Virus record (IMG/VR): IMGVR_UViG_3300022074_005601
Location: 1-32,188 of that record
From: a virus
Taxonomy: Duplodnaviria > Caudoviricetes
Reading direction: 5' to 3' (one strand)
Length of the DNA: 32,188 nucleotides
Numbering within the stretch: the stretch's first letter is position 1; every line of letters starts with the position of its first letter. Below, in pieces: positions 1-16,668 of this stretch. The notes below the pieces were generated by a model. The model did no database searches, had not been told where the DNA came from, and saw only the letters and a program-made list of their open reading frames with translations. The position numbers were made by a program, and so were the translations under genes.

Positions 1-23
1 CATTTACTGAATGTTCTTATGAT

Positions 24-187
24 GGGGGCGAAATAGGATCGACAGGTATTGGATAGGAATGTGGAGCTATCCCGCGCAAGCTGGGTTAACGCAAGAATGA
101 GTAAACGCAAACGATAACTTTGCACCTGAGATGCGCCTAGCGGCATAATCTCTGGGCCCGCCGGAGCCTCGAAACAGAATCCGGCAA
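24..187 (+). ncRNA. ssrA: tmRNA, coding piece of a probably two-piece (circularly permuted) alphaproteobacterial-type gene
   Basis: The 5' end GGGGGCGAAATAGGATCGAC is at 24. The resume codon GCA at 107 reads ANDNFAPEMRLAA*(TAA 146-148). A terminal helix GCCGGA(160-165)/TCCGGC(180-185) encloses AACAGAA. No T-arm/CCA follows, so the acceptor piece would lie upstream of the window. Confidence 0.9.
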
Positions 188-205
188 CTTTTAACGGAGA
201 TAAGT

Positions 206-397
206 ATGCTAGTATTAGTAACAGTAGTATCGGCTTTGTGGTTTGCTGATAACTCTGAATTCATTAAAACCTCGAACGAACAGATTGCTGATGGTTATGA
301 ATGGAATTGGGTCGGTGTAACTAAGCCTTCTGGTGTTCCTGCTATCACAATCAAAACTGACACAAATGAATACATTCTGTATAGATTGGAAAAGTGA
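206..397 (+). CDS. small membrane-anchored hypothetical protein
   Basis: GGAG RBS, hydrophobic N-terminus, coupled to the next ORF by a GTGA overlap. Confidence 0.75.
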   Translation: MLVLVTVVSALWFADNSEFIKTSNEQIADGYEWNWVGVTKPSGVPAITIKTDTNEYILYRLEK

Positions 398-747
398 TGA
401 AAAAGATTTTAGCCGCTTTTATACTTTGTTTAGGTATTAGTACAGCTCATGCTGAACCTCAATTGGTAGAGAAGCCAATTCAATGTGCAACTCCAATTGA
501 GGTAATCAATCACTACGTGTTACCTAGTGATCTCAAAACCCTATTCATAGCAGTGACTAATATTCGAACACAGCATGGAACTATTATTCCTGTGCCACTA
601 GTTGTCTTTGTGAATCCAGACAATGGACGATTCTTAATTATGGAAGGCACTCAAGAAGAGGCTTGTGTAATTAATCTTGGTGATCGAGTTGATTTTAACA
701 TCTCTCATGATGATATTATTGCTAAGTTTTTAGAAAATTCAATGTAA
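394..747 (+). CDS. exported hypothetical protein
   Basis: Sec signal peptide MKKILAAFILCLGISTAHA, two Cys in the mature part. Confidence 0.75.
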   Translation: MMKKILAAFILCLGISTAHAEPQLVEKPIQCATPIEVINHYVLPSDLKTLFIAVTNIRTQHGTIIPVPLVVFVNPDNGRFLIMEGTQEEACVINLGDRVDFNISHDDIIAKFLENSM

Positions 748-750
748 TAG

Positions 751-1635
751 TTGTTAAAATTGGAATATTATGAACTAGAACCAGAAGATAATACTTTCAA
801 TCTTCTAGTAGCAGATATAACTCATAAATGTAATATGGAATGCTCGAACTGTTATATTCCTAACAGAGACATTCCAGATATGAATGAACAGCTGCTTTAC
901 AAATTTTTACGAAAATTACCTAACCGAATAGTTGTACGATTGATTGGTGCTGAACCAACCATGCGTAAAGATCTTCCAGATTTGATTACAGAGATCAAGA
1001 AGTGTGGCCACAATGTTAGTCTTACCACAAATGGATTGAAGTTAGCTAGTAAAAAGTATCTGAACAGTTTAAAATCAAGTGGTTTAAGAATGGTTTTAAT
1101 ATCTATGAATGGAGCTGATGATCCAGACATCTATAAAGTTATGGATGATGGAAGAGAATATTCTGATCTCAAAGTAAAAGCTCTAATCAATTGTATGGAA
1201 GCAAACATGATTGTTAATACTGGTACAATAGTTGCAAAAGGTGTTAACGAATCAGTAATGAAAAAACAAGTTGATTTAGTTTATAAGTGTATGAAAGAGA
1301 CTGGATATAAACCACGACTCGTTCCTCTTCTCAGAATGAAAAGCGTTGGATATATTGGTCGTCATATGGAAGGTAAATCATATAATGTAGACGAACTAGA
1401 AGATTTGTTTTTGTCACAATGTCCAGATTTCAAAGAAGACACCACTTGGGCTCCTAATTCTGGAACACTATGTAAACTATATACGGATGGAAATGTTTAC
1501 GTAAGATTAATTGATTGGTCCATTGATGAAGAAGGTGTACCAGATTCAGGTAATGAGTTACGCGGCCGCATTACTCCTGATTGGAAGGTGGCACCATTTT
1601 TTGAGCATGTAAAACAAAATGAATTCCAATATTAA
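751..1635 (+). CDS. radical SAM enzyme (MoaA-like core, no auxiliary cluster domain)
   Basis: CxxxCxxC (CNMECSNC), GAEP (GGE-motif equivalent), TTNG and ISMNG strands. The TTG start is uncertain. Confidence 0.9.
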   Translation: MLKLEYYELEPEDNTFNLLVADITHKCNMECSNCYIPNRDIPDMNEQLLYKFLRKLPNRIVVRLIGAEPTMRKDLPDLITEIKKCGHNVSLTTNGLKLASKKYLNSLKSSGLRMVLISMNGADDPDIYKVMDDGREYSDLKVKALINCMEANMIVNTGTIVAKGVNESVMKKQVDLVYKCMKETGYKPRLVPLLRMKSVGYIGRHMEGKSYNVDELEDLFLSQCPDFKEDTTWAPNSGTLCKLYTDGNVYVRLIDWSIDEEGVPDSGNELRGRITPDWKVAPFFEHVKQNEFQY

Positions 1636-2185
1636 CTCAATAACATTATCTCCTGATGACCTTGACTTTGACAGGTATTTGTTAAAGGTCGAAAGGCTTT
1701 GTCTTGGCATTAATGATACTTTATATTCAAATCCCCATCGGCTAAAAATAGATGAGTGGGTTGGCGTTACAGTATATATTGATGAATACGATGAAGTATA
1801 TGGGTTTTCATCTATAAGTTATAGAAAAAACTTTGGTAGAGGAGCCAGAATACTTAATAGATTTTATAAAGATCCCAAGTATCGTTTTGAAAATAATAAG
1901 AGATCTCTATCTCTTGCTACATTATCTATGCTTAAGGATCAAGTAGCTTTGTGCGAACAACTGGGATATCAATATGCGTTTATGAGCAGAGACTCAAAAA
2001 CTATAAAAGCGTGGCATCATTACTCAAAGTATTTTCAATTTAGAGAATGGAACGTATCTGATAAATATTATCATATGATCAAAGATTCGTGGCAGCAAAT
2101 TATATGGACACCATTGGTTGATAATGCTGAGCCAACTATGCAATCATTAACAAAAGAGGAATATAATGAATTACAAAAAACTTAA
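1619..2185 (+). CDS. GNAT-fold acyltransferase-like protein
   Basis: VYGFSSI strand, RFYKDPKYR motif-A-like segment, then helix and LGYQYAFMS; overlaps both neighbours. Confidence 0.55.
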   Translation: MNSNINSITLSPDDLDFDRYLLKVERLCLGINDTLYSNPHRLKIDEWVGVTVYIDEYDEVYGFSSISYRKNFGRGARILNRFYKDPKYRFENNKRSLSLATLSMLKDQVALCEQLGYQYAFMSRDSKTIKAWHHYSKYFQFREWNVSDKYYHMIKDSWQQIIWTPLVDNAEPTMQSLTKEEYNELQKT

Positions 2186-3026
2186 AGTGGGGTATCAAGT
2201 CGAAAATGTAAATTATGATAGTCCAGAGGATGCAAATAAGATTAAAGAGTTGATAGGAGAAGGTAGACTAGTAGTAGTCAAAAATAACGCCCATGTTCCA
2301 GCTAAAGATCTTGTTTCTTTATACACAAAAATTGGTGATGTTGTTGCTCAGTCTGATAAAGTAGTAGGTAGTGGAGTAGACGGATATCAAGAGCTTGTAA
2401 GAGTGAGAGCTAATGGTTTATTCAAAGGCGCAGAAGATGGTGAACTTGAGTGGCATTCTGCAGGTATGAATAGACATGGAGCAGAAGATGTAGTAGCAAT
2501 GTATATGAACAAACCTGCTGAATCTGGTGGCGACACTTATTTTAGCGACTTTCAATCTGCATATGATGATTATGAAGATAAGGACACAGTCGATTCTTTA
2601 CAAAGTAAAATGAGAACATATTCTGATGAGAGAAGTTTAAAAGCTAAACATTATGAAAAAGTATTCAATGATGAGGAAACTTATAGAAACTTCAAAGACA
2701 TTGACGGGGTTGCTGCTCACACCAAAGAAGTTGAGACTAAAAGTCTAGTTACAACTCATCCTATTAACAATAAAAAAGGGTTCTATTATCCTTGGGTTGT
2801 TATTAGAGGATTTGATGGAATGGATAGGAGAGAAGGACATACTACATACTTTAAAATTAAAGAACACGTAATGGATGATAAGTATGTTTATAAGCACCAA
2901 TGGGATAACTATGATATTTGCTTAAGCGATCAACATCATAGTTTACACAGGAGAGATGCGTATGATGGAGACCGTGAATTATGGAGAGCTGGAATCTGGT
3001 TTAGATCTGAGGCAAAGTCTGCTTGA
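2166..3026 (+). CDS. TauD/TfdA-family Fe(II)/2OG enzyme with HxA motif (candidate halogenase)
   Basis: WHSA (His97, Ala99) in place of WHxD; GGDTYFSD; HPIN; HQW..DICLSDQHHSLHRR; RELWR. Confidence 0.85.
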   Translation: MNYKKLKVGYQVENVNYDSPEDANKIKELIGEGRLVVVKNNAHVPAKDLVSLYTKIGDVVAQSDKVVGSGVDGYQELVRVRANGLFKGAEDGELEWHSAGMNRHGAEDVVAMYMNKPAESGGDTYFSDFQSAYDDYEDKDTVDSLQSKMRTYSDERSLKAKHYEKVFNDEETYRNFKDIDGVAAHTKEVETKSLVTTHPINNKKGFYYPWVVIRGFDGMDRREGHTTYFKIKEHVMDDKYVYKHQWDNYDICLSDQHHSLHRRDAYDGDRELWRAGIWFRSEAKSA

Positions 3027-3663
3027 CAAAGGGTTAGTTCGAATTCAATGTGAATATCCTATCACGATGAAAGAATTTGAATCTTTAGCTCACTCATTAG
3101 GCAAACCTCTCGTCACTTCTAAGCATGTTCTCAACGAAGCAAGAACTGTTCAGGAACTAAGTAACAACGGCTTGTTTGGAGATGGAGAAGTAGAGTGGCA
3201 TCATGACTGGAGCTATGGGCGAGGTAACTATTTTGGTACTGTTCTTTACAATGTAGAGAATGCTCATTTGTCTGAAACATGGTTTTGTGATATGTCCAAA
3301 GCTCCAGATAGTTTAAAAAAGATGTACAAAAATTGTATTGGAAGTTACTATCCTCCAAAACATTTACAAGAAGCATGCTTTAACGAAAAACAACTTCGCA
3401 TACTAAAAAAACAAAAAGTATCAAGACCATTTATTATTAATCATCATGTTACTGGTGAAGAGATTCTCTATTGTTCTATTGGTTCAATTAGAGATATGCC
3501 AGAAGAAGGTTTGGGTCCCATAAAACGTTGGGCTGAAGAAAATTGTTTTAAGTACAAATGGGAATCTAACGATATCTTGTTATGGGATAATCTAAAAATG
3601 ATGCACAAGCGTTTTGCTTTTGAAGGTACTAGATTTTTATGGAGAACACAATTTTTGATATGA
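2956..3663 (+). CDS. TauD/TfdA-family dioxygenase (canonical HxD)
   Basis: WHHD, TWFCDM, KWESNDILLWDN..MMHKR, RFLWR. The start may be 2962 or 2965. Confidence 0.88.
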   Translation: MRMMETVNYGELESGLDLRQSLLDKGLVRIQCEYPITMKEFESLAHSLGKPLVTSKHVLNEARTVQELSNNGLFGDGEVEWHHDWSYGRGNYFGTVLYNVENAHLSETWFCDMSKAPDSLKKMYKNCIGSYYPPKHLQEACFNEKQLRILKKQKVSRPFIINHHVTGEEILYCSIGSIRDMPEEGLGPIKRWAEENCFKYKWESNDILLWDNLKMMHKRFAFEGTRFLWRTQFLI

Positions 3664-4373
3664 AGATTTTAATTAGCAATCCGAGGCAAGGATCTAGTTG
3701 GGCATATCCTTATTTCAAAAAATATAATGAGGAACAAACACTTTGTAAATCTCCAGAGCATTTTTCAGAATATTTACTTGAAGCTAAAAATGCAGCTAAG
3801 TATTTAGGTAAAGCGGCATTAGAAAGAGAAAATGCTCGTAATATTACTTTAGAACAAAAAATCAATAACATTGAACAACATCGAATGAATGGTTTTGAAT
3901 TCAACATGAAGATTCATGCTTTTCATCTATTTTATAGATATGGTGATGGAGTAGTGTATGATTGGTTTAAAGAGTTTTATTCGAATGCAGAAATATATAT
4001 TATTCGTAGAAAAGATATGTACAGAGCATATTTGAGCTTATTAACTCATCTTACAAAAGGCAGAGGATATTGGCATAACTGTGGCCACGAAGAAGCTGAA
4101 TTGATTAGAGCTTGTAGCAAGTTTGAATTTAAACATAATGAACCTATGTGGAAGTCTTTTAAACACGTTAACAATTGTATGGATAAAGTACAAGGAACAA
4201 TTTTATATCTTGAAGATATTAGTGATGAATATTTAAGTGATCTTCTCGGAATAAAGATTGAACAAAAAATTCATAAGTGGAATATCAATTATGAAATGTT
4301 TTATACAAAAAAAGAACTAAATACTATTAGAGATATTATCGACAAGGGGTACAATAATGTCGTCCCCAATTGA
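3660..4373 (+). CDS. PAPS-dependent sulfotransferase-like protein (Stf0-like)
   Basis: 5'-PSB loop SNPRQGSSW, 3'-PB-like IIRRKDMYRAYLS, and LYLED. Start ATG 3660 overlaps the upstream TGA (ATGA). Confidence 0.65.
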   Translation: MKILISNPRQGSSWAYPYFKKYNEEQTLCKSPEHFSEYLLEAKNAAKYLGKAALERENARNITLEQKINNIEQHRMNGFEFNMKIHAFHLFYRYGDGVVYDWFKEFYSNAEIYIIRRKDMYRAYLSLLTHLTKGRGYWHNCGHEEAELIRACSKFEFKHNEPMWKSFKHVNNCMDKVQGTILYLEDISDEYLSDLLGIKIEQKIHKWNINYEMFYTKKELNTIRDIIDKGYNNVVPN

Positions 4374-4851
4374 AATTTATGACGGTATCAAAGAATATCC
4401 TAAACAACAATTGTTGGAAGAGTACAATCTTTTGAAAGATAATGAAAAAGATTATGCTGATTCTATTACACCAACAGGAGTTCCGTACTGGAAAGTTATT
4501 CGTGGTGATGATATGATATCAGAGTTTGCAGCCAAGGTAGCAAATTATTTTAAAAAAACATATAATATTGAAGGTAAAGTAGATGGAAGATTTTATAGAC
4601 TTCTAGCTAATGCAACACTACCTTATCACACAGATCGATCAACACAGTGTTCTGTTAATATGATTCTGTCAGAAGGACAAGCTCCAGTAAAATTTAAAGT
4701 TAATGGAGTCGAGACTGAATATCTATACGACATAGCTCTATTGAATACACAAGTAGAGCACAGTGTTCAGAATGGTGAAGAAGACAGAATTATTTTTAAG
4801 ATTTCAGTGTTTGATGAATCCTATGATTCAGTAGCTGCAAAGATTAACTAA
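4357..4851 (+). CDS. small 2OG-Fe(II) oxygenase (cupin/AspH-like)
   Basis: LPYHTD, distal EHSVQN, RIIFKIS. Confidence 0.8.
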   Translation: MSSPIEIYDGIKEYPKQQLLEEYNLLKDNEKDYADSITPTGVPYWKVIRGDDMISEFAAKVANYFKKTYNIEGKVDGRFYRLLANATLPYHTDRSTQCSVNMILSEGQAPVKFKVNGVETEYLYDIALLNTQVEHSVQNGEEDRIIFKISVFDESYDSVAAKIN

Positions 4852-5302
4852 CACATCCTACTATGTGAATTCTTTCTTCAAAAGAGGCATTCAAAGCTGT
4901 GTGCCTCTTTCTTGTATCTATTACATAATGATTACCATCAGCAGGATATCTTTTCAACTCATCATCTATAATGAACATGCAATTCGTATTAGTGATAAGA
5001 GGAATGTGAACTCTTATAGACATGTCTCTATGATATGAGTAGCACGTTTTTGGCTTTAATACCATTACACGAGTTCGGAACATCTTCAGATCTGAAATAA
5101 CAGAGTTTGTATATTTCAGCTGAGGAAAACAAAACTCTGTGAAGTCTTCAGCTTTGTGGTTGATATTGTTATCCTGCCACGTTACTCTTTTTTCATGAAC
5201 ACCATAAAAGTGATCTTCCCCACTAACTGTCTGCAGGCCTATTCGATCTTCATAATCTGGAAGTAGTTCAAACTCTAAAAGAATTCTATCAATGTCAATC
5301 AT
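4844..5302 (-). CDS. aspartyl/asparaginyl beta-hydroxylase-like 2OG-Fe(II) oxygenase
   Basis: RTRVMVL, YSYHRD, RVHIPLITN, IDTRKRHTALN, RIHIV. Confidence 0.85.
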   Translation of the reverse strand: MIDIDRILLEFELLPDYEDRIGLQTVSGEDHFYGVHEKRVTWQDNNINHKAEDFTEFCFPQLKYTNSVISDLKMFRTRVMVLKPKTCYSYHRDMSIRVHIPLITNTNCMFIIDDELKRYPADGNHYVIDTRKRHTALNASFEERIHIVGCVS

Positions 5303-5481
5303 CTAATCTTATACCAGTCTCTCAGTTCACCTTCTTCTTTATGCATATACTTACTTATAGAGGCCAACACAACTTTATCTTCATCATGATCTATAACAAC
5401 CCAATCACTTGAGCCGGAGGGAGATTTCACAATATCCCCTCTTTTTAAAACTGTGTGGCCAACCTTGTTTTGAAGTATCAT
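5299..5481 (-). CDS. small hypothetical protein (SH3/KOW-like beta fold possible)
   Basis: Strong GGAGGAG RBS on the minus strand (CTCCTCC 5485-5491); LKRGDIVKS; coupled to the oxygenase gene. Confidence 0.7.
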   Translation of the reverse strand: MILQNKVGHTVLKRGDIVKSPSGSSDWVVIDHDEDKVVLASISKYMHKEEGELRDWYKIR

Positions 5482-5506
5482 AGACTCCTCCTTTGGTTGG
5501 TGAGTA

Positions 5507-5514
5507 TATTTATG
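5507..5514 (-). promoter_or_regulatory. T4-like late promoter variant CATAAATA
   Basis: One mismatch to TATAAATA, correctly placed upstream of the RBS of the minus-strand gene pair. Confidence 0.5.
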
Positions 5515-5558
5515 TTAAAAAAAAAATTAAAAAAGTTTGTTTTAGATGAAAAAAGTTG

Positions 5559-5587
5559 TTGACTTCTCGGTCGAATGGAGTGATAAT
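5559..5587 (+). promoter_or_regulatory. sigma70-like early promoter
   Basis: TTGACT-17nt-GATAAT with upstream A/T tracts (UP-like); the downstream leader is shared with the promoter at 30149. Confidence 0.8.
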
Positions 5588-5616
5588 ATATGTATAGAAT
5601 GAAAGAGGAGAAAGAA

Positions 5617-5820
5617 ATGGGAAAAGTTAAAGCGTGGGCAATGGATTGTGAAGACATGTTTTGGGAAGGAGCTCAGGACGTTGTTATTGAGTGTGAGAAC
5701 TTTCAGCAGTTTGTTGAAGTTATGCAACCTCAGTTAGATCTGGTTGTTCATTTAGATAAGCAAGAGATCGATTTTGGTCTTAGCAATATCTGGTCAGAGT
5801 TTGTGGAGAGTACTATATAA
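5617..5820 (+). CDS. small acidic early protein
   Basis: GAGGAG RBS supports ATG 5617 (MGKVKAWAMD) rather than 5590. Confidence 0.75.
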   Translation: MGKVKAWAMDCEDMFWEGAQDVVIECENFQQFVEVMQPQLDLVVHLDKQEIDFGLSNIWSEFVESTI

Positions 5821-5900
5821 TGTTTATGTTGTTGAAAATCACCCTCGCTACCATGGGTATATTTATGGTAGCATCACTTCCAATTATGCTAATCTGGTAG
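5820..5900 (+). CDS. 26-aa hydrophobic microprotein (not in ORF track)
   Basis: MFMLLKITLATMGIFMVASLPIMLIW; GGAGAG RBS at 5805; TAATG coupling; fills the gap exactly. Confidence 0.55.
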   Translation: MFMLLKITLATMGIFMVASLPIMLIW

Positions 5901-5909
5901 GAGAGAAAA

Positions 5910-6866
5910 ATGGCACATGAAGTTGAAACAATGGCTTATGCAGGATCTGTTCCGTGGCATGGGCTTGGCGTACCGGTCTCAAATGATTTGACACCTGTAC
6001 AGATGATGGACAAAGCTGGTCTGAACTGGAATGTCCGTGAACTTGAATCATATATTGAGTTTGATGGTAAGCGTATGGCTACCGGTCAAAAGTCTTTGGT
6101 TCGTGAAACTGATGGAAAGATTCTTACTAATGTTGGTGAGAATTGGAATCCTTGTCAGAATGAGACTGCCTTTGAGTTCTTCTCAGAATATGTAATGGCT
6201 GGCGATATGGAAATGCATACCGCTGGATCACTGAAAGGTGGTCAGATGGTTTGGGCTCTTGCAAAAGTAAAAGAGTCATTCGAACTGTTTGGTGGAGATC
6301 AGATTGATTCTTATCTTTTGTTCTCTAACCCACATCAGTATGGCAAGTCCATTGATGTTCGGTTTACACCCATTCGTGTGGTGTGTAACAATACCTTGAG
6401 CTACTCACTTAGCAGCAATAAAGATAACTCTGTGAAAGTAGGCCACCGCGCTGACTTCAATGCAGAGTCTGTTAAGGAGTCACTTGGTATTGCTAAGTCA
6501 AAACTCAACACATATAAAGATATGGCTGAGTTTCTTGGCAAGAAGCGTTTCACTACTGATTCGCTTATTGAGTACTACAACACAGTCTTTCCTCGTCACG
6601 CTGATAAGCGAGTGCAAGGTAAGGCTTTGTCAGTAGATACTTTGTCTCGTAATGCTAAGTTGGCTTACGATGCTCTTGAGCAGCAGCCTGGATCTAAGTA
6701 TGCAGAAGGATCTTGGTGGCAGGCATTTAATTCTGTAACATTCATTACTGACCACGTTCAGGGTCGTAGTGCTGATAATCGTCTGTACTCTTCTTGGTAT
6801 GGATCTAACCAGGTTCGCAAGACTAAAGCTCTTGGAACTGCAATTGAATATGCGGAGGCTGCATAA
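5910..6866 (+). CDS. DUF932/DUF945-family phage/plasmid-like protein
   Basis: MAHEVETMAY..PWHGLG, TAGSLKGG..VW, YLLFSNPH, TPIRVVCNNTL, WQAFNSVTF..DH. Confidence 0.9.
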   Translation: MAHEVETMAYAGSVPWHGLGVPVSNDLTPVQMMDKAGLNWNVRELESYIEFDGKRMATGQKSLVRETDGKILTNVGENWNPCQNETAFEFFSEYVMAGDMEMHTAGSLKGGQMVWALAKVKESFELFGGDQIDSYLLFSNPHQYGKSIDVRFTPIRVVCNNTLSYSLSSNKDNSVKVGHRADFNAESVKESLGIAKSKLNTYKDMAEFLGKKRFTTDSLIEYYNTVFPRHADKRVQGKALSVDTLSRNAKLAYDALEQQPGSKYAEGSWWQAFNSVTFITDHVQGRSADNRLYSSWYGSNQVRKTKALGTAIEYAEAA

Positions 6867-7135
6867 TGACTAAGACGAATCAAATCTTTGAGATCCTCAA
6901 GATCTCATCTCCAACTAACAAAGAACTTGCCAAAGCTATTTTTGGCAAGGACACCCCACAAACTCGCGGAAACATCCGTAGGCGGATTTCAAATATTCGT
7001 TGGGATAAGAATGTAAACATTACTGCTAATAGTAATGGTCATTATAATATGGCTTACATCTACACTGAAGATGATCAACGATTCCAAAACCGTTTGGTCT
7101 TAGGTAAAGTTGGACGTCCAAGAAAGGTTGCATAA
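6866..7135 (+). CDS. putative winged-HTH DNA-binding protein with C-terminal AT-hook
   Basis: TNKELAKAIF...IRRRISNIR helix pair, GHY wing, GRPRK tail. Confidence 0.5.
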   Translation: MTKTNQIFEILKISSPTNKELAKAIFGKDTPQTRGNIRRRISNIRWDKNVNITANSNGHYNMAYIYTEDDQRFQNRLVLGKVGRPRKVA

Positions 7136-7326
7136 TGACTGAAGGTCCTCTGAAGTCCGCTTTGGACAGTCTTGATTCCCAGGGAGTTTTTTCACACTCC
7201 CTGGTGACTTATCGTTACAAAAGTGGTATACTTATCAAAGAAACGATAACTCGAAAGTACACTGAGGATGGTGACTATCAAGATTCGTTTTGTAGTGAAC
7301 CGTTTGGAAAGGGAAGTGCAGTATGA
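7135..7326 (+). CDS. hypothetical protein
   Basis: TAATG coupling within a tightly packed operon. Confidence 0.7.
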   Translation: MTEGPLKSALDSLDSQGVFSHSLVTYRYKSGILIKETITRKYTEDGDYQDSFCSEPFGKGSAV

Positions 7327-7505
7327 GAAAGCATTCGCTGGCAATGACAGCAGCTTGGGCTAAGGATTGGGGTATTCGTGGTTACGAACATCTTGATCCT
7401 CAGCAACAGGAACAACGCAGACAATCTTCTAACAAGAAGATGCGTGAACGAGATCGTAGAGATAATCAGAGGAGATATAAAGATGAGCAATCAACGAGGA
7501 GGTAA
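7323..7505 (+). CDS. hypothetical protein with basic low-complexity tail
   Basis: ATGA overlap, GGGA RBS. Confidence 0.6.
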   Translation: MRKHSLAMTAAWAKDWGIRGYEHLDPQQQEQRRQSSNKKMRERDRRDNQRRYKDEQSTRR

Positions 7506-7701
7506 GTGGAAAAAAGCCTCACTGGATAGTGGTCTTAGTCAAATGAAACTGAGAAACTTCTTTCGAGATTGTAAAGAGTTGCTTGAAGAGAATGGTGAAG
7601 AAGATGCGGCCTTTTACTTCGAGCAAGTTATGGATGAGATTAACGAAGGTCGATCTCTTCCAGGAGATAAACGAAACGTGTCTAAGGTATTAGGTTTGTG
7701 A
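7483..7701 (+). CDS. hypothetical protein
   Basis: GAGGAG RBS supports ATG 7483 (MSNQRGGKWK) rather than 7378. Confidence 0.7.
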   Translation: MSNQRGGKWKKASLDSGLSQMKLRNFFRDCKELLEENGEEDAAFYFEQVMDEINEGRSLPGDKRNVSKVLGL

Positions 7702-8174
7702 TGAACACATCTAACTTGTGGAAGAAAGTAAAAAAAATGGATTTAGGGAACCCCGTAATCACAGCTCTTGTAGGATTAGTTATTTTCTACATTGGTCTTA
7801 AAACATTCTCAGGCGGAATGAAATCTATGGGTAACATGGAACATCTTTCCTGGTTCACTGGTAACATATTCTATATGTTTATTGGTGGTATTGTGATGAC
7901 ATTGTTATGGCAGTCATCATCACTTTCTACTACAGCCATTATTGCTTTGGTTGCTAGTGGAGCAATTCCTCTACCGGCTGCAATCGCATGTGTACTGGGA
8001 GCCAACATTGGAACAACTGGTACTATCTGGCTTGCTGGTCTACTAGTTTCGGATGGCATACCGAAAGGAGACACGCTACGAATAGCTATAGCCCATACAG
8101 GTGTCAATCTGTTTATGGCTGCAACACTTCTACCATTTGTGCATCGAATAGCACAATTCCTAGGTCGATTCTAA
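7698..8174 (+). CDS. Na+/phosphate cotransporter family (NptA/SLC34-like), single repeat
   Basis: GLKTFSGGM, LWQSSSLSTT, LGANIGTTGT, AHTGVNL; hydrophobic throughout. The start is uncertain (7698/7701/7737). Confidence 0.88.
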   Translation: MMNTSNLWKKVKKMDLGNPVITALVGLVIFYIGLKTFSGGMKSMGNMEHLSWFTGNIFYMFIGGIVMTLLWQSSSLSTTAIIALVASGAIPLPAAIACVLGANIGTTGTIWLAGLLVSDGIPKGDTLRIAIAHTGVNLFMAATLLPFVHRIAQFLGRF

Positions 8175-8189
8175 GAATTGTTTTTTAAG

Positions 8190-8215
8190 AAAAGCGGGCT
8201 TTGGTCCGCTTTTTT
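8190..8215 (+). terminator. rho-independent terminator
   Basis: AAAA-GCGGGC-TTTG-GTCCGC-TTTTTT, at the end of the early operon and before a late promoter. Confidence 0.85.
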
Positions 8216-8229
8216 AATCTCCTAAAACT

Positions 8230-8237
8230 TATAAATA
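8230..8237 (+). promoter_or_regulatory. T4-type late promoter
   Basis: Exact TATAAATA, intergenic, upstream of a GAGG RBS. Confidence 0.85.
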
Positions 8238-8265
8238 GATCTAAGCATTCTAATGAGGTATTCAG

Positions 8266-9243
8266 ATGTTAAGATTTAAAAGTTTTTTATTGGAGAGGGA
8301 CGTGGCTGTAATCGATTGGAAGCAATTGCAACATAACGATCTTAGAAAAGACCCCAGCCGAAGTGGTATGTTTTTGGCCAAAATTAAAAATGATGAAGAA
8401 TTCTTAACTGTAAAAGGTCTTGTAAAAATAGATAAAAGCGAGTATGATGAATTCTCAATAGGTATGTCCAAATCAGGATTCAGCAAACTTAAAGTAAAAA
8501 CCACCAAAGGAAATTTGAGTTATCCAAAAGACTTTTACAAAACAGGTGAATTTGGTGGAAAGGGAAAGGGATCTGGAGTTGCCGCTGAGAACGCTGCTCT
8601 TACTATTGCACAATCAAATTTAATGAAAGCCCTTGAACAAGAAAAAGATCCTTATCTTACGTTAAGAATAGGTAAGCGAACTGTACAGTGCGCTTCAATT
8701 ATTTCTACTCCAAACCCAGGAGGAAGAGATCCTAAATCTGATTTTGCTATAGTTGATGTAAAAGGTAATATGGTAGCTCATATATCTCATAAAGCTGGAA
8801 GAGATGCTAAAGGATTCCAGCAATATGGTGGTGTTACTGATTTACCAAACGAACCTGAAATTGAACAGTTTGTAAATACTATTTTGAAAGAGAGGCCAGA
8901 AGGCTTAAAACCTGGTGATACATTCTATAGAAAACTAAAATCAGATCGTATTGCTAACAAATCAGTATATGGTGTGGATTTTGGTAACAGAACAGTTGGA
9001 GTCAATAACGTTGACGAGTTTCATCAAGGCACAATGAATTTTGTAAAACGTGGTAGAGGACATATTATTACATCTCTCCATAAAGGAGTTGTGGGAACTG
9101 TTACGCGAGGTGATGGTTATGAACCAATATTAGTAGCTCGATATAATAGAAGAATGGGAAGATATGGTACACTAATATTACCCAACTCTCGTATAGGTAT
9201 ATTCCCCATGGCAAAGCTATCAAGTAGATCTACAGAAATATAA
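8266..9243 (+). CDS. putative internal head protein with PD-(D/E)xK-like nuclease motif
   Basis: N-terminal MLRFKSFLLE; PKSDFAIVD...ISHK; GFQQYGG. Confidence 0.55.
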   Translation: MLRFKSFLLERDVAVIDWKQLQHNDLRKDPSRSGMFLAKIKNDEEFLTVKGLVKIDKSEYDEFSIGMSKSGFSKLKVKTTKGNLSYPKDFYKTGEFGGKGKGSGVAAENAALTIAQSNLMKALEQEKDPYLTLRIGKRTVQCASIISTPNPGGRDPKSDFAIVDVKGNMVAHISHKAGRDAKGFQQYGGVTDLPNEPEIEQFVNTILKERPEGLKPGDTFYRKLKSDRIANKSVYGVDFGNRTVGVNNVDEFHQGTMNFVKRGRGHIITSLHKGVVGTVTRGDGYEPILVARYNRRMGRYGTLILPNSRIGIFPMAKLSSRSTEI

Positions 9244-9247
9244 CACA

Positions 9248-10474
9248 ATGAACTTTAAAGATTACATTACTGAACAAAAAAATACACATATGACCCACAT
9301 TGAAGATAAGGTCATCTATGGTGGAGTAAAAGGTACACGCGAAGCTATCTTGGCCTTGCGTTCGTTAAGAGATACATTAGGAGGTGTTCATGATGGAAAT
9401 GTTAGTGTTAAATGGGATGGTGCTCCTGCTATCTTTGCTGGGACTGATCCTCGTGATGGCAGATTCTTCGTGGCGAAAAAAGGGATCTTTAACAAGTCTC
9501 CCAAAGTATACAAGAGTGATGCTGACGTTGACGCTGATACTAGTGGTGATCTTAATGCAAAGCTCAAACAGGCTTTACAATATCTACCTAATCTGGGGAT
9601 AAAAGGAATTATTCAAGGGGACTTCTTATTTGGACCAGGTGATGTTAAAACTCAACGGATCAAAGGTAAGACATATGTCACGTTCCATCCTAATACGATT
9701 GTTTATGCAGTTCCGTCTGGCACGGACATGGCCAAGCAAATTAAGGCAGCAAAGATTGGAATTGTATGGCATTCGACATACACAGGAAGATCATTCGAAA
9801 CGCTCAGAGTAAGTTATGGAGTAGATGTTTCAAAGTTTAGATCATCTCGTGATGTTTGGTCCCAAGATGCTATGCTAAGAGATATGACTAAGTTTACAAT
9901 GTCCAAAGAAGATACAAATGAAGTCAACGAATATCTAAAGACCGCTGGATTTATTTTCAATAAGATTGCTGGATCAACACTTAGACAACTTGAAGCAAAT
10001 CAGACTCTTGCCCAACACATTGAGACACACGCTAATAGTTATGTAAGAGCTGGCGCACTTCCACCTGACCCAGCTAGAAGAGTTGATGCACTTATTAAGT
10101 TTATTAACACCAAATACAAAAAAGAGATTGATACTAGAAAGACCACTGCTGGAAAGGCTACACAACAAAAGAAACTAGATGATCTTTTGTCTTTCTTTTC
10201 TACTCAAAATAAACGGTCTCTTGTGCAAATGTTTGAACTTCAGAGAGTGATTGTATTAGCCAAGCTAAAACTTATAAATACTTTAAATAAGCTAAACAAC
10301 CTGGATACTTTTCTAAAAACTACTAAAGGTTATAGAGTAACAGGTGAAGAAGGTTATGTAGCGATTGACCAGCTTGGTGGTGATGCGGTTAAAATTGTTG
10401 ACAGAATGGAATTTTCATTTGCCAACTTTAGCCCGACTGTATTAAAGGGATGGGATAAACCAGGGAGAAGTTAG
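9248..10474 (+). CDS. conserved T4-like phage protein (DUF6267-like) with ligase/covalent nucleotidyltransferase motifs
   Basis: MNFKDYITE; KNTHMTHIED; K55WDG, QGDF, E368GYV, VK382IVDR. Confidence 0.65.
   Translation: MNFKDYITEQKNTHMTHIEDKVIYGGVKGTREAILALRSLRDTLGGVHDGNVSVKWDGAPAIFAGTDPRDGRFFVAKKGIFNKSPKVYKSDADVDADTSGDLNAKLKQALQYLPNLGIKGIIQGDFLFGPGDVKTQRIKGKTYVTFHPNTIVYAVPSGTDMAKQIKAAKIGIVWHSTYTGRSFETLRVSYGVDVSKFRSSRDVWSQDAMLRDMTKFTMSKEDTNEVNEYLKTAGFIFNKIAGSTLRQLEANQTLAQHIETHANSYVRAGALPPDPARRVDALIKFINTKYKKEIDTRKTTAGKATQQKKLDDLLSFFSTQNKRSLVQMFELQRVIVLAKLKLINTLNKLNNLDTFLKTTKGYRVTGEEGYVAIDQLGGDAVKIVDRMEFSFANFSPTVLKGWDKPGRS
10273..10280 (+). promoter_or_regulatory. possible internal late promoter
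   Basis: Exact TATAAATA within the CDS, about 200 nt before the next gene. Confidence 0.5.
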
Positions 10475-10924
10475 ATGGCATTACTGTCATTCAAAGATAT
10501 GATAGCCGTTGAATACCGGCCAGGTGAAGACGAACTAACCAATTACAGAGCCAAGCGCCGTAAAAATGGTGCTATGCACGAAGCTGATGAAGCAGACGTA
10601 GACGAGGCTCTTACTCTCCAACAAAGAATGAAACGCTCACGTATGATGAAGCGAATGAAGTCTCGTATCAAGCTAGGACGAGATCGCGCTCGACGTAAAA
10701 TGGCCGATAAAGGTAAATTACAAAGACGTGCAATGAGACAAGCTCGTGATCAAGTTGTACGCAAGATTACAAAAGATATTCCTAAGTCAGAATTGTCTTT
10801 TGCACGCAAGCAAGAGATTGAAAAGAGAATGGACAAGCCACAGTTTAAGGCACGCATCCAACGTATGGCTCGTAAGATGTTTCCTAAGATTCGTCAGGCA
10901 GAAGTGAAAAGGAAAAAAGGTTGA
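10475..10924 (+). CDS. highly basic putative internal head protein
   Basis: SFKDMIAVE leader; acidic linker ending VDE, then an Arg/Lys/Met-rich helical domain. Confidence 0.7.
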   Translation: MALLSFKDMIAVEYRPGEDELTNYRAKRRKNGAMHEADEADVDEALTLQQRMKRSRMMKRMKSRIKLGRDRARRKMADKGKLQRRAMRQARDQVVRKITKDIPKSELSFARKQEIEKRMDKPQFKARIQRMARKMFPKIRQAEVKRKKG

Positions 10925-12771
10925 TTAATTCTTTTAAGAGTTATCTGGTTGAAGAGGAAAAGACTCTATACTTTGTTTGGGGTCGTATGAATCCTCCTAC
11001 AGCTGGCCACGAAAAGTTATTAGACTTTTTGAAAACCAAAGCTGGTAACAACCCGTATAGAATTTATTTGACTCAGAGTGAGGATCAAACAAAGAATCCA
11101 ATTCCGTTTGTGCAAAAGGTGAAGTTTGCGCGTAAAGGATTTCCTCAGTATGCCCGTCAGATTATGATGGATAGAAAACTCAAAACTATATTTGATGCTG
11201 TCACTTCTTTTTACAATGAAGGATTCAAAAGAATTGTAGTAGTAGCAGGTGGGGATAGAATTAGAGAATACGAGATTACTTTGAACAAATATAATGGCGT
11301 CAAGGGTCGTCATGGATTTTATAACTTTGAGAAGATCCAAGTGCTTAATGCAGGAAACCGTGATCCGGATTCTGAAGGTGTTGCGGGTGTATCTGGTACA
11401 AAGTTGAGAGGGTTCGTTAAAGATGGAGACTTCACTAGCTTTGCACAGAACATGCCTAAGAAACTTTCAAATGCAGATGCAAAGCAAGTATTCAATGCAG
11501 TCCGTAAAGGAATGGGATTAAAAGAACAAAAAGAATTTAAGAACCATGTACAGCTAGATTCTGTATCTTCTATGAGAGAAGCATATGTGTCTGGTAATCT
11601 TCTAAATGAAGGTGATATGGTTATTGTAAAAGATACTGATGAAGTAGCTACAGTTAGAATGCTCGGTGCAAATTATGTAATCGTAGAGGATTCGATGGGT
11701 AAGAAGTTTAGAAAGTGGATTGATGCTGTTGAACTTGTTGAGGTAAGACAAGATTCAGACATTGCAGATCGTAAAGGGACACAGCCTGCTAAGTACCACG
11801 CTGGTCTTTCTAAGTCAACTAAAGCTGCCCGCGATAGACAGTTTAAGAAACAAACAAAGATGGCTGATAACAATCCAGCAGCATATAAGCCAGCTCCTGG
11901 TGACAAAGACGCTAAGACAAAACCAAGTAAGTTTACTGTTGCTGTCAAAAAGATGTTTGGAGAAAGTTATACAGCATGGACTAATAGCGAACCAGTTGAG
12001 TATGCAAAACATTTAGAAAAGACTTTTGGTAAACCAGATGAGATGACAGACAGTCAACTTTGTTGGTTCTCCAAAGACGGATTCAAAAGAATTGTTATTA
12101 AAGACGAATATATTTTACATGGATCTCCTGCTCCTCATTATGATTTCATCTATTGCTATATTGATTTGAGTGTTCCAGAAAAGTATGCTACAGCTCTTGC
12201 TGAATCAAGTGGAAGCATTATGATTGACTTCTTAAAGAATGAAGTGGGTGCAAGATGTGGATCGATTACAGCCAATGCTACTACACTTAATTATGTGTTA
12301 GATGTTGTAGCTGAAAGAGTCAAACCAAGTAAAGAAGAATACGAAAAAAGAATTCTTGGTATGAGAAAAATGTTTGAGAATGGTGAGACATATACTACAG
12401 ACTGGTGGCCTGATGAATCCAAAGATGCTGATCCTAAGAATAAATACTATGCAGAGGGTCATTCAGCAGTATGTGGATGTGTAATAAATGAAGGACATGC
12501 AACATCAAGAGCACAACAAGCAGCCATTGCTATTTCTAAGAAAGAAAGAGAAGGTGAGCGCATGAAAGAATATAAGATGTCCATGAAGCCAACAAAGCCT
12601 CTTAGATTTAAAAAAATGTTTGAGAAAGATGCACAAGATGCTGCTAAGAAAAGAATTGATAGAGAAAAAGAACGAGTTGCTGTAAGACACGATCGTATGA
12701 TGGATCGTGCACGTACAAGAGATACAATTGCAAAGAACAGAGAGACAAATCCAAATGATAAAGTTCGCTGA
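10921..12771 (+). CDS. multi-domain protein with N-terminal HIGH-superfamily (cytidylyltransferase/NMNAT-like) domain
   Basis: MINSFKSYLVE; WGRMNPPTAGHEKL; NPIPF; VAGGDR; VSGTKLR; several further modules follow. Confidence 0.85.
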   Translation: MINSFKSYLVEEEKTLYFVWGRMNPPTAGHEKLLDFLKTKAGNNPYRIYLTQSEDQTKNPIPFVQKVKFARKGFPQYARQIMMDRKLKTIFDAVTSFYNEGFKRIVVVAGGDRIREYEITLNKYNGVKGRHGFYNFEKIQVLNAGNRDPDSEGVAGVSGTKLRGFVKDGDFTSFAQNMPKKLSNADAKQVFNAVRKGMGLKEQKEFKNHVQLDSVSSMREAYVSGNLLNEGDMVIVKDTDEVATVRMLGANYVIVEDSMGKKFRKWIDAVELVEVRQDSDIADRKGTQPAKYHAGLSKSTKAARDRQFKKQTKMADNNPAAYKPAPGDKDAKTKPSKFTVAVKKMFGESYTAWTNSEPVEYAKHLEKTFGKPDEMTDSQLCWFSKDGFKRIVIKDEYILHGSPAPHYDFIYCYIDLSVPEKYATALAESSGSIMIDFLKNEVGARCGSITANATTLNYVLDVVAERVKPSKEEYEKRILGMRKMFENGETYTTDWWPDESKDADPKNKYYAEGHSAVCGCVINEGHATSRAQQAAIAISKKEREGERMKEYKMSMKPTKPLRFKKMFEKDAQDAAKKRIDREKERVAVRHDRMMDRARTRDTIAKNRETNPNDKVR

Positions 12772-12991
12772 GTATATCAAAGAGGACGCTGGCAAGTCAT
12801 TTGCTGATAAAGCTAAGAAGTCTGGTATCTCTGTTGGTACATTGAGAAAAGTTTATAACAGAGGAGTCGCAGCTTGGAAAACAGGTCACCGCCCAGGTAC
12901 AACTCCATCACAATGGGGGCACGCAAGAGTGAATGCTTTCATTGTTAAAAAGAAAAGAGGCGGCCTCAACCATGATAAGGATTTAGCATAA
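12755..12991 (+). CDS. small basic viral protein (DUF5824-like)
   Basis: MIKFAEYIKE at ATG 12755; LRKVYNRGVAAWKTGHRPGTTPSQWGHARVN. The family name is from recall. Confidence 0.65.
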   Translation: MIKFAEYIKEDAGKSFADKAKKSGISVGTLRKVYNRGVAAWKTGHRPGTTPSQWGHARVNAFIVKKKRGGLNHDKDLA

Positions 12992-14058
12992 TGCCACTAA
13001 AAGTATCAGATGGAATCGGAGCTTACATTGACGACTTCAAAAAGTCTGATGCTCCTCAGTTCAAAGGTAAATCAGAAAAAGAACGTCGCGACATGGGTAT
13101 TGCAGCATATCTGTCTGCAAAGAATGGGCCTAAAAACGAATCAGTAAAAACTGCAGATAGAAAACCAGAGATGTATACCAAGCCAGATGGCAAACGTGGT
13201 GTACGGATGGTTCCTGTTGATAAAGAAGTTGTCAGCAAAGAAGATTCTGATGCAGTAAAAGCATTCCTTGCAAAGGGTGGTAAGATTACAAAACTTCCAC
13301 CAGGCAAGGCTCAAGGCTATCATGGTAAAGATGACCCAGGTAAAGATGTAGCTGGTGTAATGGATAAACCTGATACTGACAAATTCAGGACTCGTAAAAA
13401 AGTAAAGTCCATGGAATCTACAAATGAAGAAGATGGCCACTTCATGTATAAGGATGGCAAGAAAGTTATGGTTAAAACAAAAGCTGACCATGACAAATAT
13501 GCTAAGATGGGATATACAATGTCAGAGGCTCATCTTACTGGTCCATTGAATAAAGATGATAAACCATTTGTTGCTAATCTGGTTAAAAAACTTCGCAAAG
13601 GTTCTAAGACTCATGCCAAGCAAGCCGACGATCTTGAAAAGGCAATGACTACTGAAGTGTCTGCTGATAAACTTTCAAGTTATATGAGTAAAGCATCTGA
13701 TGCAAGTAAGCATAGAGGTATGCCTACTCGTAAAGTTGATAACAGATACGGTGGTGTCGCAATGGCACAAGACAAAATGGCTAAGGCTGGAATGATGGGT
13801 ACAACTGCTCAAAAAGTTTCGCGAGCAAAAGTTCCAGCAGGTAGGAATGTAAAAGAAGACACAAATTTTGAAGTCAATATTGAAGGCCTTCCTATGATGT
13901 TTATGTCCGGTATGAGTCCAGGCGAAATCAAAGCCAAGCTCAGAGGGATTGTAAAACAACCTTCGATGATTAATGGTGTCAAGAGAGTTACAGATGCTAC
14001 TGTTAGAAAATCGTTTCGCTTGAAAGCTCAAGGTAAAGACGAACAAGAAGATGATTAA
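12991..14058 (+). CDS. Lys-rich modular hypothetical protein, probably head-associated
   Basis: TAATG coupling; short modules (DDFKKSDAPQFKGKS, AFLAKGGKITKLPPG) separated by Glu-ending linkers. Confidence 0.7.
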   Translation: MPLKVSDGIGAYIDDFKKSDAPQFKGKSEKERRDMGIAAYLSAKNGPKNESVKTADRKPEMYTKPDGKRGVRMVPVDKEVVSKEDSDAVKAFLAKGGKITKLPPGKAQGYHGKDDPGKDVAGVMDKPDTDKFRTRKKVKSMESTNEEDGHFMYKDGKKVMVKTKADHDKYAKMGYTMSEAHLTGPLNKDDKPFVANLVKKLRKGSKTHAKQADDLEKAMTTEVSADKLSSYMSKASDASKHRGMPTRKVDNRYGGVAMAQDKMAKAGMMGTTAQKVSRAKVPAGRNVKEDTNFEVNIEGLPMMFMSGMSPGEIKAKLRGIVKQPSMINGVKRVTDATVRKSFRLKAQGKDEQEDD

Positions 14059-14332
14059 ATTTAAAACTTTCATCTCTGAGGACATGTCTGGCATGTCAGT
14101 ATCGTCTGGTCATAAAAGATCAGTTGCTCAGGGTGCAGGTATGACTAAAAAAGGGGTTGCAGCTTATAGAAGGCGCAACCCCGGCAGCAAATTGAAGACT
14201 GCTGTTACTACTGCTCCAAGTAAGCTAAAGCCTGGAAGTAAAGCTGCTAACAGAAGAAAAGCCTTTTGTTCTCGTTCAAGAAGTTGGACAAGCGAAAGAG
14301 GTAAAGCAGCTCGCAGAAGATGGAATTGTTAG
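14051..14332 (+). CDS. small basic protein (DUF6321-like)
   Basis: MIKFKTFISE; GMTKKGVAAYRRRNPGSKLKTAVT...RRKAFC...RRRWNC. The family name is from recall. Confidence 0.7.
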   Translation: MIKFKTFISEDMSGMSVSSGHKRSVAQGAGMTKKGVAAYRRRNPGSKLKTAVTTAPSKLKPGSKAANRRKAFCSRSRSWTSERGKAARRRWNC

Positions 14333-14361
14333 CAAACTAACTTACTATACTACAAGATTCT

Positions 14362-14369
14362 TATAAATA
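14362..14369 (+). promoter_or_regulatory. T4-type late promoter
   Basis: Exact intergenic TATAAATA. Confidence 0.8.
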
Positions 14370-14388
14370 GTTACACAAGTGTAACTAT
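14367..14388. repeat. perfect 10-bp inverted repeat (operator-like)
   Basis: ATAGTTACAC-AA-GTGTAACTAT. Confidence 0.85.
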
Positions 14389-14447
14389 CTGGTATATTAT
14401 TCTCTGTCATTAGATTCTGAGTTGACTTCATTTTAAAGGAGTAAATT

Positions 14448-14927
14448 ATGGATCCAGTTTCAGCTTTAGCTACCGCATCGGCTGCATTTGGCGTACTGAA
14501 AAAAGGTTTTCAGGTGGGGAGAGACATAGAGTCCATGGCCGGAGATTTAGGTCGGTGGATGAGTGCTATGTCCGACTTATCAGAAGCAGAACGTCAAGCT
14601 AAAAATCCTCCTATATTTAAAAAACTAGCTTTCAAAGGTTCAGTAGAAGAAGAAGCCATACAGGCATTTGCTGCTAAAAAGAAAGCAGAAGATATGCGTT
14701 ATGAGCTTAAACAATTTATCAGTCTATCCTTGGGATCGAGTAAGTGGGAGGAGCTCGTGCGCATGGAAGGACAAATAAGAAAAGAAAGACAAGAAACTAT
14801 ATACAAGCAAGCTCAACGCAGACAAAAATTTGTAGAATGGGTAGGCATCATTATTCTTACATCTTTAATGGGAGGGGGATTCGTGGGATTAGTTTGGCTT
14901 TTATATAACGCTCATCACGGAATATGA
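14448..14927 (+). CDS. hypothetical protein with C-terminal TM helix
   Basis: AAGGAG RBS; helical; hydrophobic C-terminus. Confidence 0.8.
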   Translation: MDPVSALATASAAFGVLKKGFQVGRDIESMAGDLGRWMSAMSDLSEAERQAKNPPIFKKLAFKGSVEEEAIQAFAAKKKAEDMRYELKQFISLSLGSSKWEELVRMEGQIRKERQETIYKQAQRRQKFVEWVGIIILTSLMGGGFVGLVWLLYNAHHGI

Positions 14928-15580: not shown

Positions 15581-15589
15581 GAGAATGTT

Positions 15590-16657: not shown

Positions 16658-16668
16658 GATGTTGTTTT

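Follow-up and report, generated by a model that had tools for sequence, protein, structure and literature searches.

What might a phage do with six overlapping genes for modifying enzymes and no scaffold synthase to supply their substrate? The question is raised by a contig of a tailed phage (Caudoviricetes; IMG/VR record IMGVR_UViG_3300022074_005601), a fragment of 32,188 nt that was analysed whole, with its 48 open reading frames (ORFs), and is referred to here as the window. An earlier note, made from the letters alone, had recognised at positions 751-4851 an operon for a radical S-adenosylmethionine (SAM) enzyme (rSAM), a GNAT, two TauD-like proteins with HxA and HxD motifs [TauD(HxA) and TauD(HxD)], a sulfotransferase and a further 2-oxoglutarate (2OG) oxygenase, and had proposed an acquired pathway that decorates an existing substrate, as a leading candidate for an undescribed system. 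We favour a narrower reading, in which the cassette tailors an acyl chain and then transfers it to a surface molecule; we put its probability at about 0.45. The genes, their folds and motifs, their joint inheritance and the link of the rSAM to acyltransferases and iron oxidases are matters of observation and are described before that reading is weighed.

A four-gene core inherited as a unit

A viral search with an alignment of TauD(HxA) recovered 89 loci, including three from a search with the sulfotransferase-like gene; a scan with the single TauD(HxA) sequence had returned nothing. TauD(HxA) was present in 82 loci once the phage's own record was removed, and 32 were left after dereplication at 90%, some of the loci being contigs also recovered via the rSAM. 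Among dereplicated loci with enough flank, the rSAM lies upstream of TauD(HxA) in 25 of 27 and the GNAT in 24 of 27. On the downstream side, TauD(HxD) is present in 23 of 25 and a gene of the sulfotransferase-like type in 11 of 23. These neighbour counts define a four-gene core, rSAM-GNAT-TauD(HxA)-TauD(HxD), with a variable tail, and the order of the core is inherited as a unit. The genes are not freely shuffled among relatives, in keeping with the coherent, conserved pathway of the earlier note, whose view of a tailoring pathway without a scaffold synthase is also supported.

The gene upstream of the cassette is not conserved among related islands. A search of 50,697 deposited phage records with the rSAM, TauD(HxA), the GNAT and another member of the GNAT family gave no match, so that no cultured phage model was found. 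A structural gene family lies within 7 kb at one of 13 TauD(HxA)-type loci, as against 13 of 51 viral loci overall, and the cassette is thus mostly outside the structural region. Inspection by eye placed a sigma-70-like site just before the rSAM in three relatives (L044, L051 and L058; L numbers denote the loci of this analysis), and a cross-locus count, whose gap measure was faulty, gave one sigma-70-like and one late site in 37. With few structural genes nearby and such sites ahead of the rSAM in three relatives, the evidence leans to an early, host-directed role. A larger cassette also occurs (L187, positions 5495-12692; L188; L248), with TauD(HxN), TauD(HxD), desaturases, an rSAM, a GNAT-like protein, an ATP-grasp-like protein and a further oxygenase; in L187 it begins with an aspartate decarboxylase, and L248 carries one HxN and two HxA copies of TauD.

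An rSAM family linked to acyl transfer

A profile of the rSAM matched 1,352 clusters (E<=1e-20), 144 viral stretches (80 kept) and 90 stretches in species genomes (80 kept). The resulting 168 loci were reduced to 120 at 90% identity, of which 90 were fully flanked (40 viral, 50 genome). The same rSAM family is therefore present in many bacterial genomes, and the pathway cannot be called phage-specific; at least two of the genome loci (L088, L092) resemble phage contigs inside bins.

Neighbours were counted on six reading frames within 2.5 kb of the rSAM. Of the 40 viral loci, 38 have an iron oxidase and 33 a known or putative acyltransferase; of the 50 genome loci, 43 and 47 do. The two occur together at 33 viral and 42 genome loci (75 of 90), or at 26 of 40 and 26 of 50 (52 of 90) when the acyltransferase is one with library support (GNAT, HlyC, MBOAT), compared with 4 of 64 viral and 1 of 86 genome control stretches taken further out (5 of 150). 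The acyltransferase lies within 1.2 kb at 70 of 90 loci, and one locus (L102) holds an in-frame oxygenase-rSAM fusion. Because some bacterial versions (L094, L095, L106, L107, L113) have the rSAM and an acyltransferase without an oxidase, it is the acyltransferase that accompanies the rSAM more steadily in genomes.

The identity of the partners follows the rSAM phylogeny. In a FastTree of 113 rSAMs (seven short ones omitted, midpoint root, no clade test), one partner set joins a heme-oxygenase-like oxidase to MBOAT or an unconfirmed LpxL-like protein, a second an AspH-type oxygenase to a GNAT, a third a desaturase to an unconfirmed GNAT-like protein, often with an acyl carrier protein (ACP), and the fourth, the phage's own, TauD(HxD) to a GNAT or HlyC. 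This last clade (FastTree support 1.0) takes in alphaproteobacterial rSAM-TauD(HxD)-HlyC and rSAM-TauD(HxD)-GNAT cassettes, and Pfam HlyC is matched by the acyltransferase partners in L090, L093 and L094. Since the acyltransferase family changes with the rSAM clade (HlyC, GNAT families, MBOAT), the link is to acyl transfer rather than to one gene. Two candidate assignments were set aside: the LpxL/GPAT-like label of the family that accompanies the heme-oxygenase-like oxidase, for which an invariant His was all that was found and PDB, Pfam and NCBIfam searches were negative, and a second GNAT-like family, with a profile-comparison probability of 25 and a PDB E value of 0.19.

RTX proteins are encoded in the fetched flanks of 11 of 21 HlyC/GNAT8 loci, compared with 0 of 47 other genome loci and 0 of 52 viral loci. 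Of 52 viral loci, 10 have an ACP gene with a DSL motif at a distance of up to 2.5 kb from the rSAM, usually with a desaturase, and in one of them it is 12 bp away. Cultured Labrenzia/Roseibium strains carry a version of the cassette (L110, L123). In L110 (positions 8061-16667) the cassette is followed by an RTX protein that we take to be nuclease-like at its N-terminus, preceded by a presumed immunity-like gene; an interbacterial toxin is thereby suggested as the acceptor. Three loci (L106, L107, L113) have a GNAT and the rSAM inside a pilus-like operon, identified by weak secretin and T2SSF matches below cut-off. Bdellovibrionota genomes (L103, L115, L128, L134, L135, L155) hold cassettes of a GNAT-like protein, an oxygenase, a desaturase and an rSAM, and in the tree their rSAMs fall with the ACP-bearing phage versions of freshwater type.

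The rSAM and its GNAT partner

The phage rSAM has the CxxxCxxC motif, a conserved RGR and a conserved aromatic C-terminal tail; translation may begin with the TTG at 760, which aligns with the Met of most relatives. The model (pLDDT 82, a predicted confidence score) is a compact barrel of 294 residues with the conserved tail. Its best Foldseek match is MoaA (E 5.8e-12, TM 0.67), with viperin-like, BlsE and AbmM structures next, and the best PDB sequence match is Tes (E 3e-23). It scores below the curated cut-offs of all 25 NCBIfam families listed, including MoaA (66-68 bits, cut-offs 231-325), viperin (43.5 bits, cut-off 180) and the Tes tetraether synthase (62.2 bits, cut-off 450), and the sources name the family MoaA-like only.

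Across 120 dereplicated members of the family, conservation extends to the cluster motif, R63 (118 of 118), the RGR (112 of 112) and an N...Y tail, the C-terminus being aromatic in 100 of 112. The counterpart of R63 in the alignment is the Arg preceding the MoaA GGEP motif, and from the full-length fold match the RGR pair may be equivalent to MoaA Arg266/Arg268. The auxiliary-cluster Cys pattern is found in 0 of 112 members, no Cys is conserved beyond position 200, MoaA Arg17 aligns with a hydrophobic position, and a profile of the C-terminal part matched neither MoaA nor any other rSAM structure. MoaA binds guanine via its auxiliary cluster plus Arg17, 266 and 268 (PMC9026282), and its Arg268 and C-terminal tail trigger SAM cleavage (PMC12625886). 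Because Arg268 of MoaA serves the tail that triggers SAM cleavage, the RGR and tail need not mean GTP, and we infer that the family retained the MoaA-type trigger and lost the guanine site. The features of a SPASM/twitch maturase of RiPPs (peptides made by the ribosome and modified after translation) are missing, with neither a Cys-rich auxiliary domain nor a peptide-recognition domain in the rSAM; no small ORF family is common to the cassettes among ORFs of at least 45 aa, leaving no RiPP precursor candidate.

The GNAT model (pLDDT 93) has the GNAT fold by both Foldseek and VIA (Z 11.6, root-mean-square deviation 3.3, 151 aligned). The usual GNAT loop for the pyrophosphate of coenzyme A (CoA) follows the pattern Q/RxxGxG/A; it is absent from the phage GNAT and present in 7 of 50 family members. 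Its longest fold alignments (150-154 residues) include those with synthases of acyl-homoserine lactones (AHLs) and with FeeM, and CoA-using GNATs, AHL synthases and FeeM all fall within ~2 Z units.

Two TauD-fold iron enzymes

In TauD(HxA), A99 stands opposite the Asp of PDB relatives in the alignment. The HxA motif is kept in 86 of 88 homologues (the phage's own protein among the 88), and a distal His261 and Arg270 in 85 of the 85 that cover them; from TauD numbering, Arg270 is presumably the 2OG-binding Arg. HXG/A is a stated halogenase marker (10.64898/2026.01.20.700248), and by its motif TauD(HxA) is predicted to be a halogenase. A PDB profile search (33 sequences at E up to 1) returned no characterised halogenase; the matches are TauD-family hydroxylases, desaturases and decarboxylases only. 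TauD(HxD) has the HxD...H triad and belongs to the subfamily that partners the rSAM in Geminicoccaceae cassettes (L089-L091, L093). Pfam curated cut-offs are passed by the rSAM and both TauD proteins, and missed by the GNAT, the sulfotransferase-like protein and the last, 164-aa protein.

A proposed model of acyl tailoring and transfer

With HlyC, GNATs and MBOAT as partners in turn, and ACP and a desaturase in some phages, the rSAM most simply acts on an acyl donor, and we therefore propose acyl tailoring followed by transfer. The donor would be an acyl chain on host ACP, or on CoA. The rSAM would abstract hydrogen from the thioester-bound chain and, having no second cluster, would catalyse a redox-neutral rearrangement or ring closure; TauD(HxD) might then hydroxylate or desaturate the chain and TauD(HxA) halogenate it. 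The GNAT would place the acyl group on a lysine or other amine, more probably in the envelope of the infected cell than on the virion, and the accessory oxygenases and the sulfotransferase-like protein could add hydroxyl and sulfate to yield a variable surface chemistry. HlyC enzymes, which are without CoA-binding elements, offer a parallel in moving acyl groups from acyl-ACP to protein lysines (PMC8339906). The earlier idea that an existing substrate is decorated thus fares better for an acyl chain with a surface acceptor than for a nucleotide, tRNA or peptide. A bolder version is possible though rather doubtful: a dedicated rSAM family would rewire an ACP-bound acyl chain, interchangeable iron enzymes would oxidise it or, in the clade of this phage, halogenate it, and HlyC, GNAT or MBOAT would graft it onto exported proteins and surfaces, as a new class of modification in bacteria and giant marine phages. 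If so, TauD(HxA) would represent a kind of TauD-fold halogenase with no counterpart in the PDB search, and infection would produce organohalogen lipid marks in the sea.

Several observations weigh against acyl tailoring. The window contains no ACP or desaturase gene, the phage GNAT is not HlyC (it has no Pfam HlyC match), and the fold search cannot separate ACP from CoA use by it. An ACP gene within 2.5 kb of the rSAM is found at 0 of 68 genome loci, and three of the four HlyC loci have no RTX gene in their flanks. The MoaA-like barrel, with its arginine-lined pocket, would suit a small phosphorylated substrate or a nucleotide as well, and a small molecule is indicated by the cassette type that includes genes for an aspartate decarboxylase and an ATP-grasp-like protein. 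As to halogenation, searches with HXA/G give false positives (10.64898/2026.01.20.700248), and distant relatives in the TauD(HxA) slot carry HxN in 6 of the 10 proteins listed. Two of the putative acyltransferase families are without library support, and the neighbour counts are not independent trials, because the partner profiles were built from the same loci and kin share neighbours.

Alternative readings

The product could instead be diffusible, an N-acyl small molecule or lipid with a head group built by the rSAM and oxygenases and an ordinary fatty acyl chain attached by the GNAT, in the manner of AHL synthases or FeeM. The long fold alignments of the GNAT with AHL synthases and FeeM would fit, as would the aspartate decarboxylase of L187, the ATP-grasp-like gene of L187 and L248, and the single TauD(HxA)-type locus of 13 with a structural gene family within 7 kb; the pairing with HlyC, the RTX export operons (11 of 21) and the pilus-like operons would go unexplained, and we judge such a product unlikely. 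A nucleotide substrate, handled as by MoaA or viperin, would make TauD(HxA) a nucleotide halogenase and the product a modified nucleoside directed at host defences or rival phages. The order of fold matches (MoaA at the top, then viperin-like, BlsE and AbmM structures) and the alignment of R63 speak for it, and nucleoside halogenases exist (PMC12766721). The auxiliary cluster pattern (missing in all 112) and the Arg17 equivalent (missing as well) are both needed for guanine binding (PMC9026282), however, and the RGR and tail could be accounted for by SAM cleavage (PMC12625886). Among the 110 neighbour families scanned there is no recurrent kinase, phosphatase or nucleoside gene, and HlyC and MBOAT are misfits as partners, so that a nucleotide substrate has a slim chance of being correct.

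Direct modification of a surface protein side chain, by hydroxylation and then sulfation or acylation, the target of the rSAM being the protein, or the acyl group once transferred, was in part foreshadowed by Iyer et al., who predicted that operons for a beta-hydroxylase and a sulfotransferase hydroxylate and then sulfate tail-collar and collagen-like proteins (PMC2938197). Structural gene families within 7 kb of 13 of 51 viral loci are in line with this. A compact 294-aa barrel with a conserved tail and no peptide-recognition or SPASM domain is not, the neighbours hold no common substrate gene, and the ACP and desaturase neighbours would be unexplained; we regard side-chain modification as quite improbable. 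Phage rSAM, oxygenase and acetyltransferase genes reportedly act in thymidine hypermodification, and a transfer-messenger RNA (tmRNA) gene lies 600 bp upstream of the cassette, which might speak for DNA or tRNA hypermodification. Thymidine hypermodification pathways have a linked 5-hydroxymethyluracil kinase and base-transfer enzyme, and neither is named among the 110 neighbour families or the 48 ORFs of the 32-kb fragment. With the same rSAM family in bacterial export and envelope operons, an upstream neighbour that is not conserved, and no cultured-phage match for the rSAM, TauD(HxA) or GNAT, hypermodification is very improbable. We give least credence to there being no single pathway at all, only an island that collects unrelated tailoring genes: 19 of 64 viral control stretches do contain oxidase genes, the accessory tail varies and synonymous divergence is uneven inside the cassette, but core order and overlaps are fixed in 23-25 of 25-27 loci, and the acyltransferase close to the rSAM at 70 of 90 loci and the L102 fusion would be hard to reconcile with chance collection.

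Gene layout, accessory genes and composition

Table 1. Genes of the cassette and the convergent gene at its end, with positions in the window.
Feature	Positions	Strand	Length	Basis or remark
MoaA-shaped radical SAM enzyme (rSAM)	751-1635	+	294 aa	Pfam PF04055
GNAT-fold acyltransferase, unnamed phage-rich family	1619-2185	+	188 aa	Model and fold search
TauD(HxA), TauD-fold Fe/2OG enzyme, predicted halogenase	2166-3026	+	286 aa	Pfam TauD
TauD(HxD), short TauD-fold Fe/2OG oxygenase	2956-3663	+	235 aa	Pfam TauD, motif table
Stf0-like sulfotransferase-fold protein, accessory	3639-4373 (probable start 3660)	+	244 aa	Motifs, Atlas score
Minimal double-stranded beta-helix Fe/2OG-type oxygenase, accessory	4357-4851	+	164 aa	Invariant residues, profile link
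AspH-type Fe/2OG oxygenase, convergent	4844-5302	-		Pfam Asp_Arg_Hydrox above cut-off; overlaps operon end

The coordinates of the six co-oriented ORFs were reproduced, as were their overlaps, which measure 17, 20, 71, 25 and 17 nt when counted from the first start codons (Table 1). The six genes are real, and yet they are not six equal members of an operon: beyond the four-gene core, the genes for the sulfotransferase-like protein and the last oxygenase form an accessory tail, and the convergent AspH-type oxygenase gene is a seventh member of the same island, convergent oxygenases ending most related islands.

The sulfotransferase-like protein has invariant S-x-P-R-x-G-S, K-x-H, R..S and YLED motifs in six sequences, which we read as motifs near the N-terminus and in mid-protein for binding 3'-phosphoadenosine 5'-phosphosulfate. 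It had no match in Pfam or PDB profile searches; an Atlas feature score of 0.97 links it to a cluster in which 14% of members carry Stf0, and with the motifs this makes the label Stf0-like. Three separately found viral relatives of its gene all lie in islands with a GNAT, TauD-like genes and the rSAM, which is full length in two and cut at the locus edge in one. In the 164-aa protein, H91, D93, H135 and R144 (HxD...H...R) are invariant in 21 aligned sequences; it links to an AspH-type profile, and its PDB matches are weak (E 0.43).

The six-gene block has 33.5% GC, compared with 39.1% for 5590-32188, where every 4.1-kb window is richer (minimum 37.4%), and GC at third codon positions is lower in its genes (Mann-Whitney p=0.0005, 6 vs 31 genes). 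The spot counts given earlier (15, 21 and 24 of 60) were exact, and the sliding window bore out the low GC of the block. The claim that the pathway was acquired fares less well: GC alone suggests it, and the cassettes of relatives are lower in GC than their upstream DNA in nine of 12 comparable cases and higher in three. In a codon comparison with a 94%-identical relative (L193), which has all seven genes in identical order, the ratio of nonsynonymous to synonymous divergence is 0.03-0.09 for five of the six operon genes and the convergent gene (0.076 for the latter), TauD(HxD) being left out because of an indel. Synonymous divergence is ~0.5 for TauD(HxA) and the sulfotransferase-like gene and ~0.2 for the rSAM, GNAT and two outer oxygenases, and this higher divergence of inner genes relative to their neighbours suggests that an inner block was exchanged by recombination.

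The wider window has the signs of a T4-like phage, with PHROG matches to sigma-factor-like, exonuclease, PhoH and ribonucleotide reductase genes and seven occurrences of the exact late-promoter octamer vs 2.7 by chance. A permuted two-piece tmRNA with a tag reading frame lies at 1-148 (+), cut by the contig start (Rfam RF04321, 53.7 bits); ARAGORN did not detect it. Permuted tmRNA genes are known from marine myophages, mostly alphaproteobacterial (PMC9004378), which suggests an alphaproteobacterial host. A late-promoter-like CATAAATA at 5514 (-) stands ahead of a 60-aa ORF (5299-5481, -) and the convergent oxygenase, and a sigma-70-like site at 5559-5587 has the opposite orientation; a scan of 1-6200 for promoters gave about as many sites as chance would (28 vs 26). 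Three RNA contigs of 151 nt (one run, share 0.07) match TauD(HxD) and the convergent gene letter for letter, with DNA carry-over possible. A QueD-like gene and a gene matching an NAD-synthetase-labelled family, at 30974-31489 and 23899-24303, have no link to the cassette.

Comparison with known systems

The rSAM resembles MoaA in its best full-length fold match, its partial barrel, the Arg before a GxEP motif, the conserved C-terminal tail and an RxR pair that may be equivalent. It differs in having neither the auxiliary [4Fe-4S] ligands nor Arg17 and in a tail that ends in an aromatic residue rather than Gly-Gly, and no MoaC was found among the scanned neighbours. With Tes and GDGT-MAS, the rSAMs of lipid C-C coupling, it shares the best PDB sequence match and a GR after the sixth strand, and Tes acts on lipid chains; these enzymes, however, are of about 500 aa with extra metal sites, compared with 294 aa for the phage protein, which scores 62 against a cut-off of 450.

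Among halogenases, the SyrB2 and CurA-Hal types are carrier-dependent Fe/2OG enzymes. TauD(HxA) shares the HxA, distal His and 2OG-binding Arg with these and with the AdeV-type nucleotide enzymes, but its PDB matches include no halogenase and the cassette has no nonribosomal peptide synthetase or polyketide synthase scaffold. The operons for acylation of RTX proteins (RtxC/HlyC with RtxA, B and D) are alike in that the nearest bacterial rSAMs adjoin HlyC or a GNAT, with or without TauD(HxD), and in some (L089, L094) the rSAM cassette lies between the RTX gene and its exporter. They are described, in the available part of PMC8339906, as four genes for plain fatty acyl transfer, with no radical SAM enzyme or oxygenase, whereas the phage cassette has no RTX gene and its GNAT is of another family.

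The enzyme islands of marine T4-like phages come closest in setting. Variable radical SAM and 2OG oxygenase cassettes are described there, with radical SAM cassettes in the host-recognition islands of pelagimyophages (PMC7029224) and dioxygenase arrays and hydroxylase-sulfotransferase operons in cyanophages (PMC2938197). In the parts available, both papers name genes without a pathway and do not give the present core; our cassette differs in its fixed core with an acyltransferase and in lying mostly outside the structural region. The gene combination is not described in the open-licence papers or bioRxiv preprints found, which agrees with the earlier note's suggestion of an undescribed system: the cassette is real and conserved, and each enzyme class is known, while the module is apparently undescribed. 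Through its link to acyltransferases, the rSAM family gains a testable job, and the version in cultured Labrenzia/Roseibium strains makes the core accessible to experiment in the absence of the uncultured phage. If acyl tailoring is correct, RTX-type acylation would no longer be confined to plain fatty acids and would take in acyl groups built by radical chemistry. The oxygenase-rich islands found in marine myophages would then be explained in part, and a new halogenase family would be on offer.

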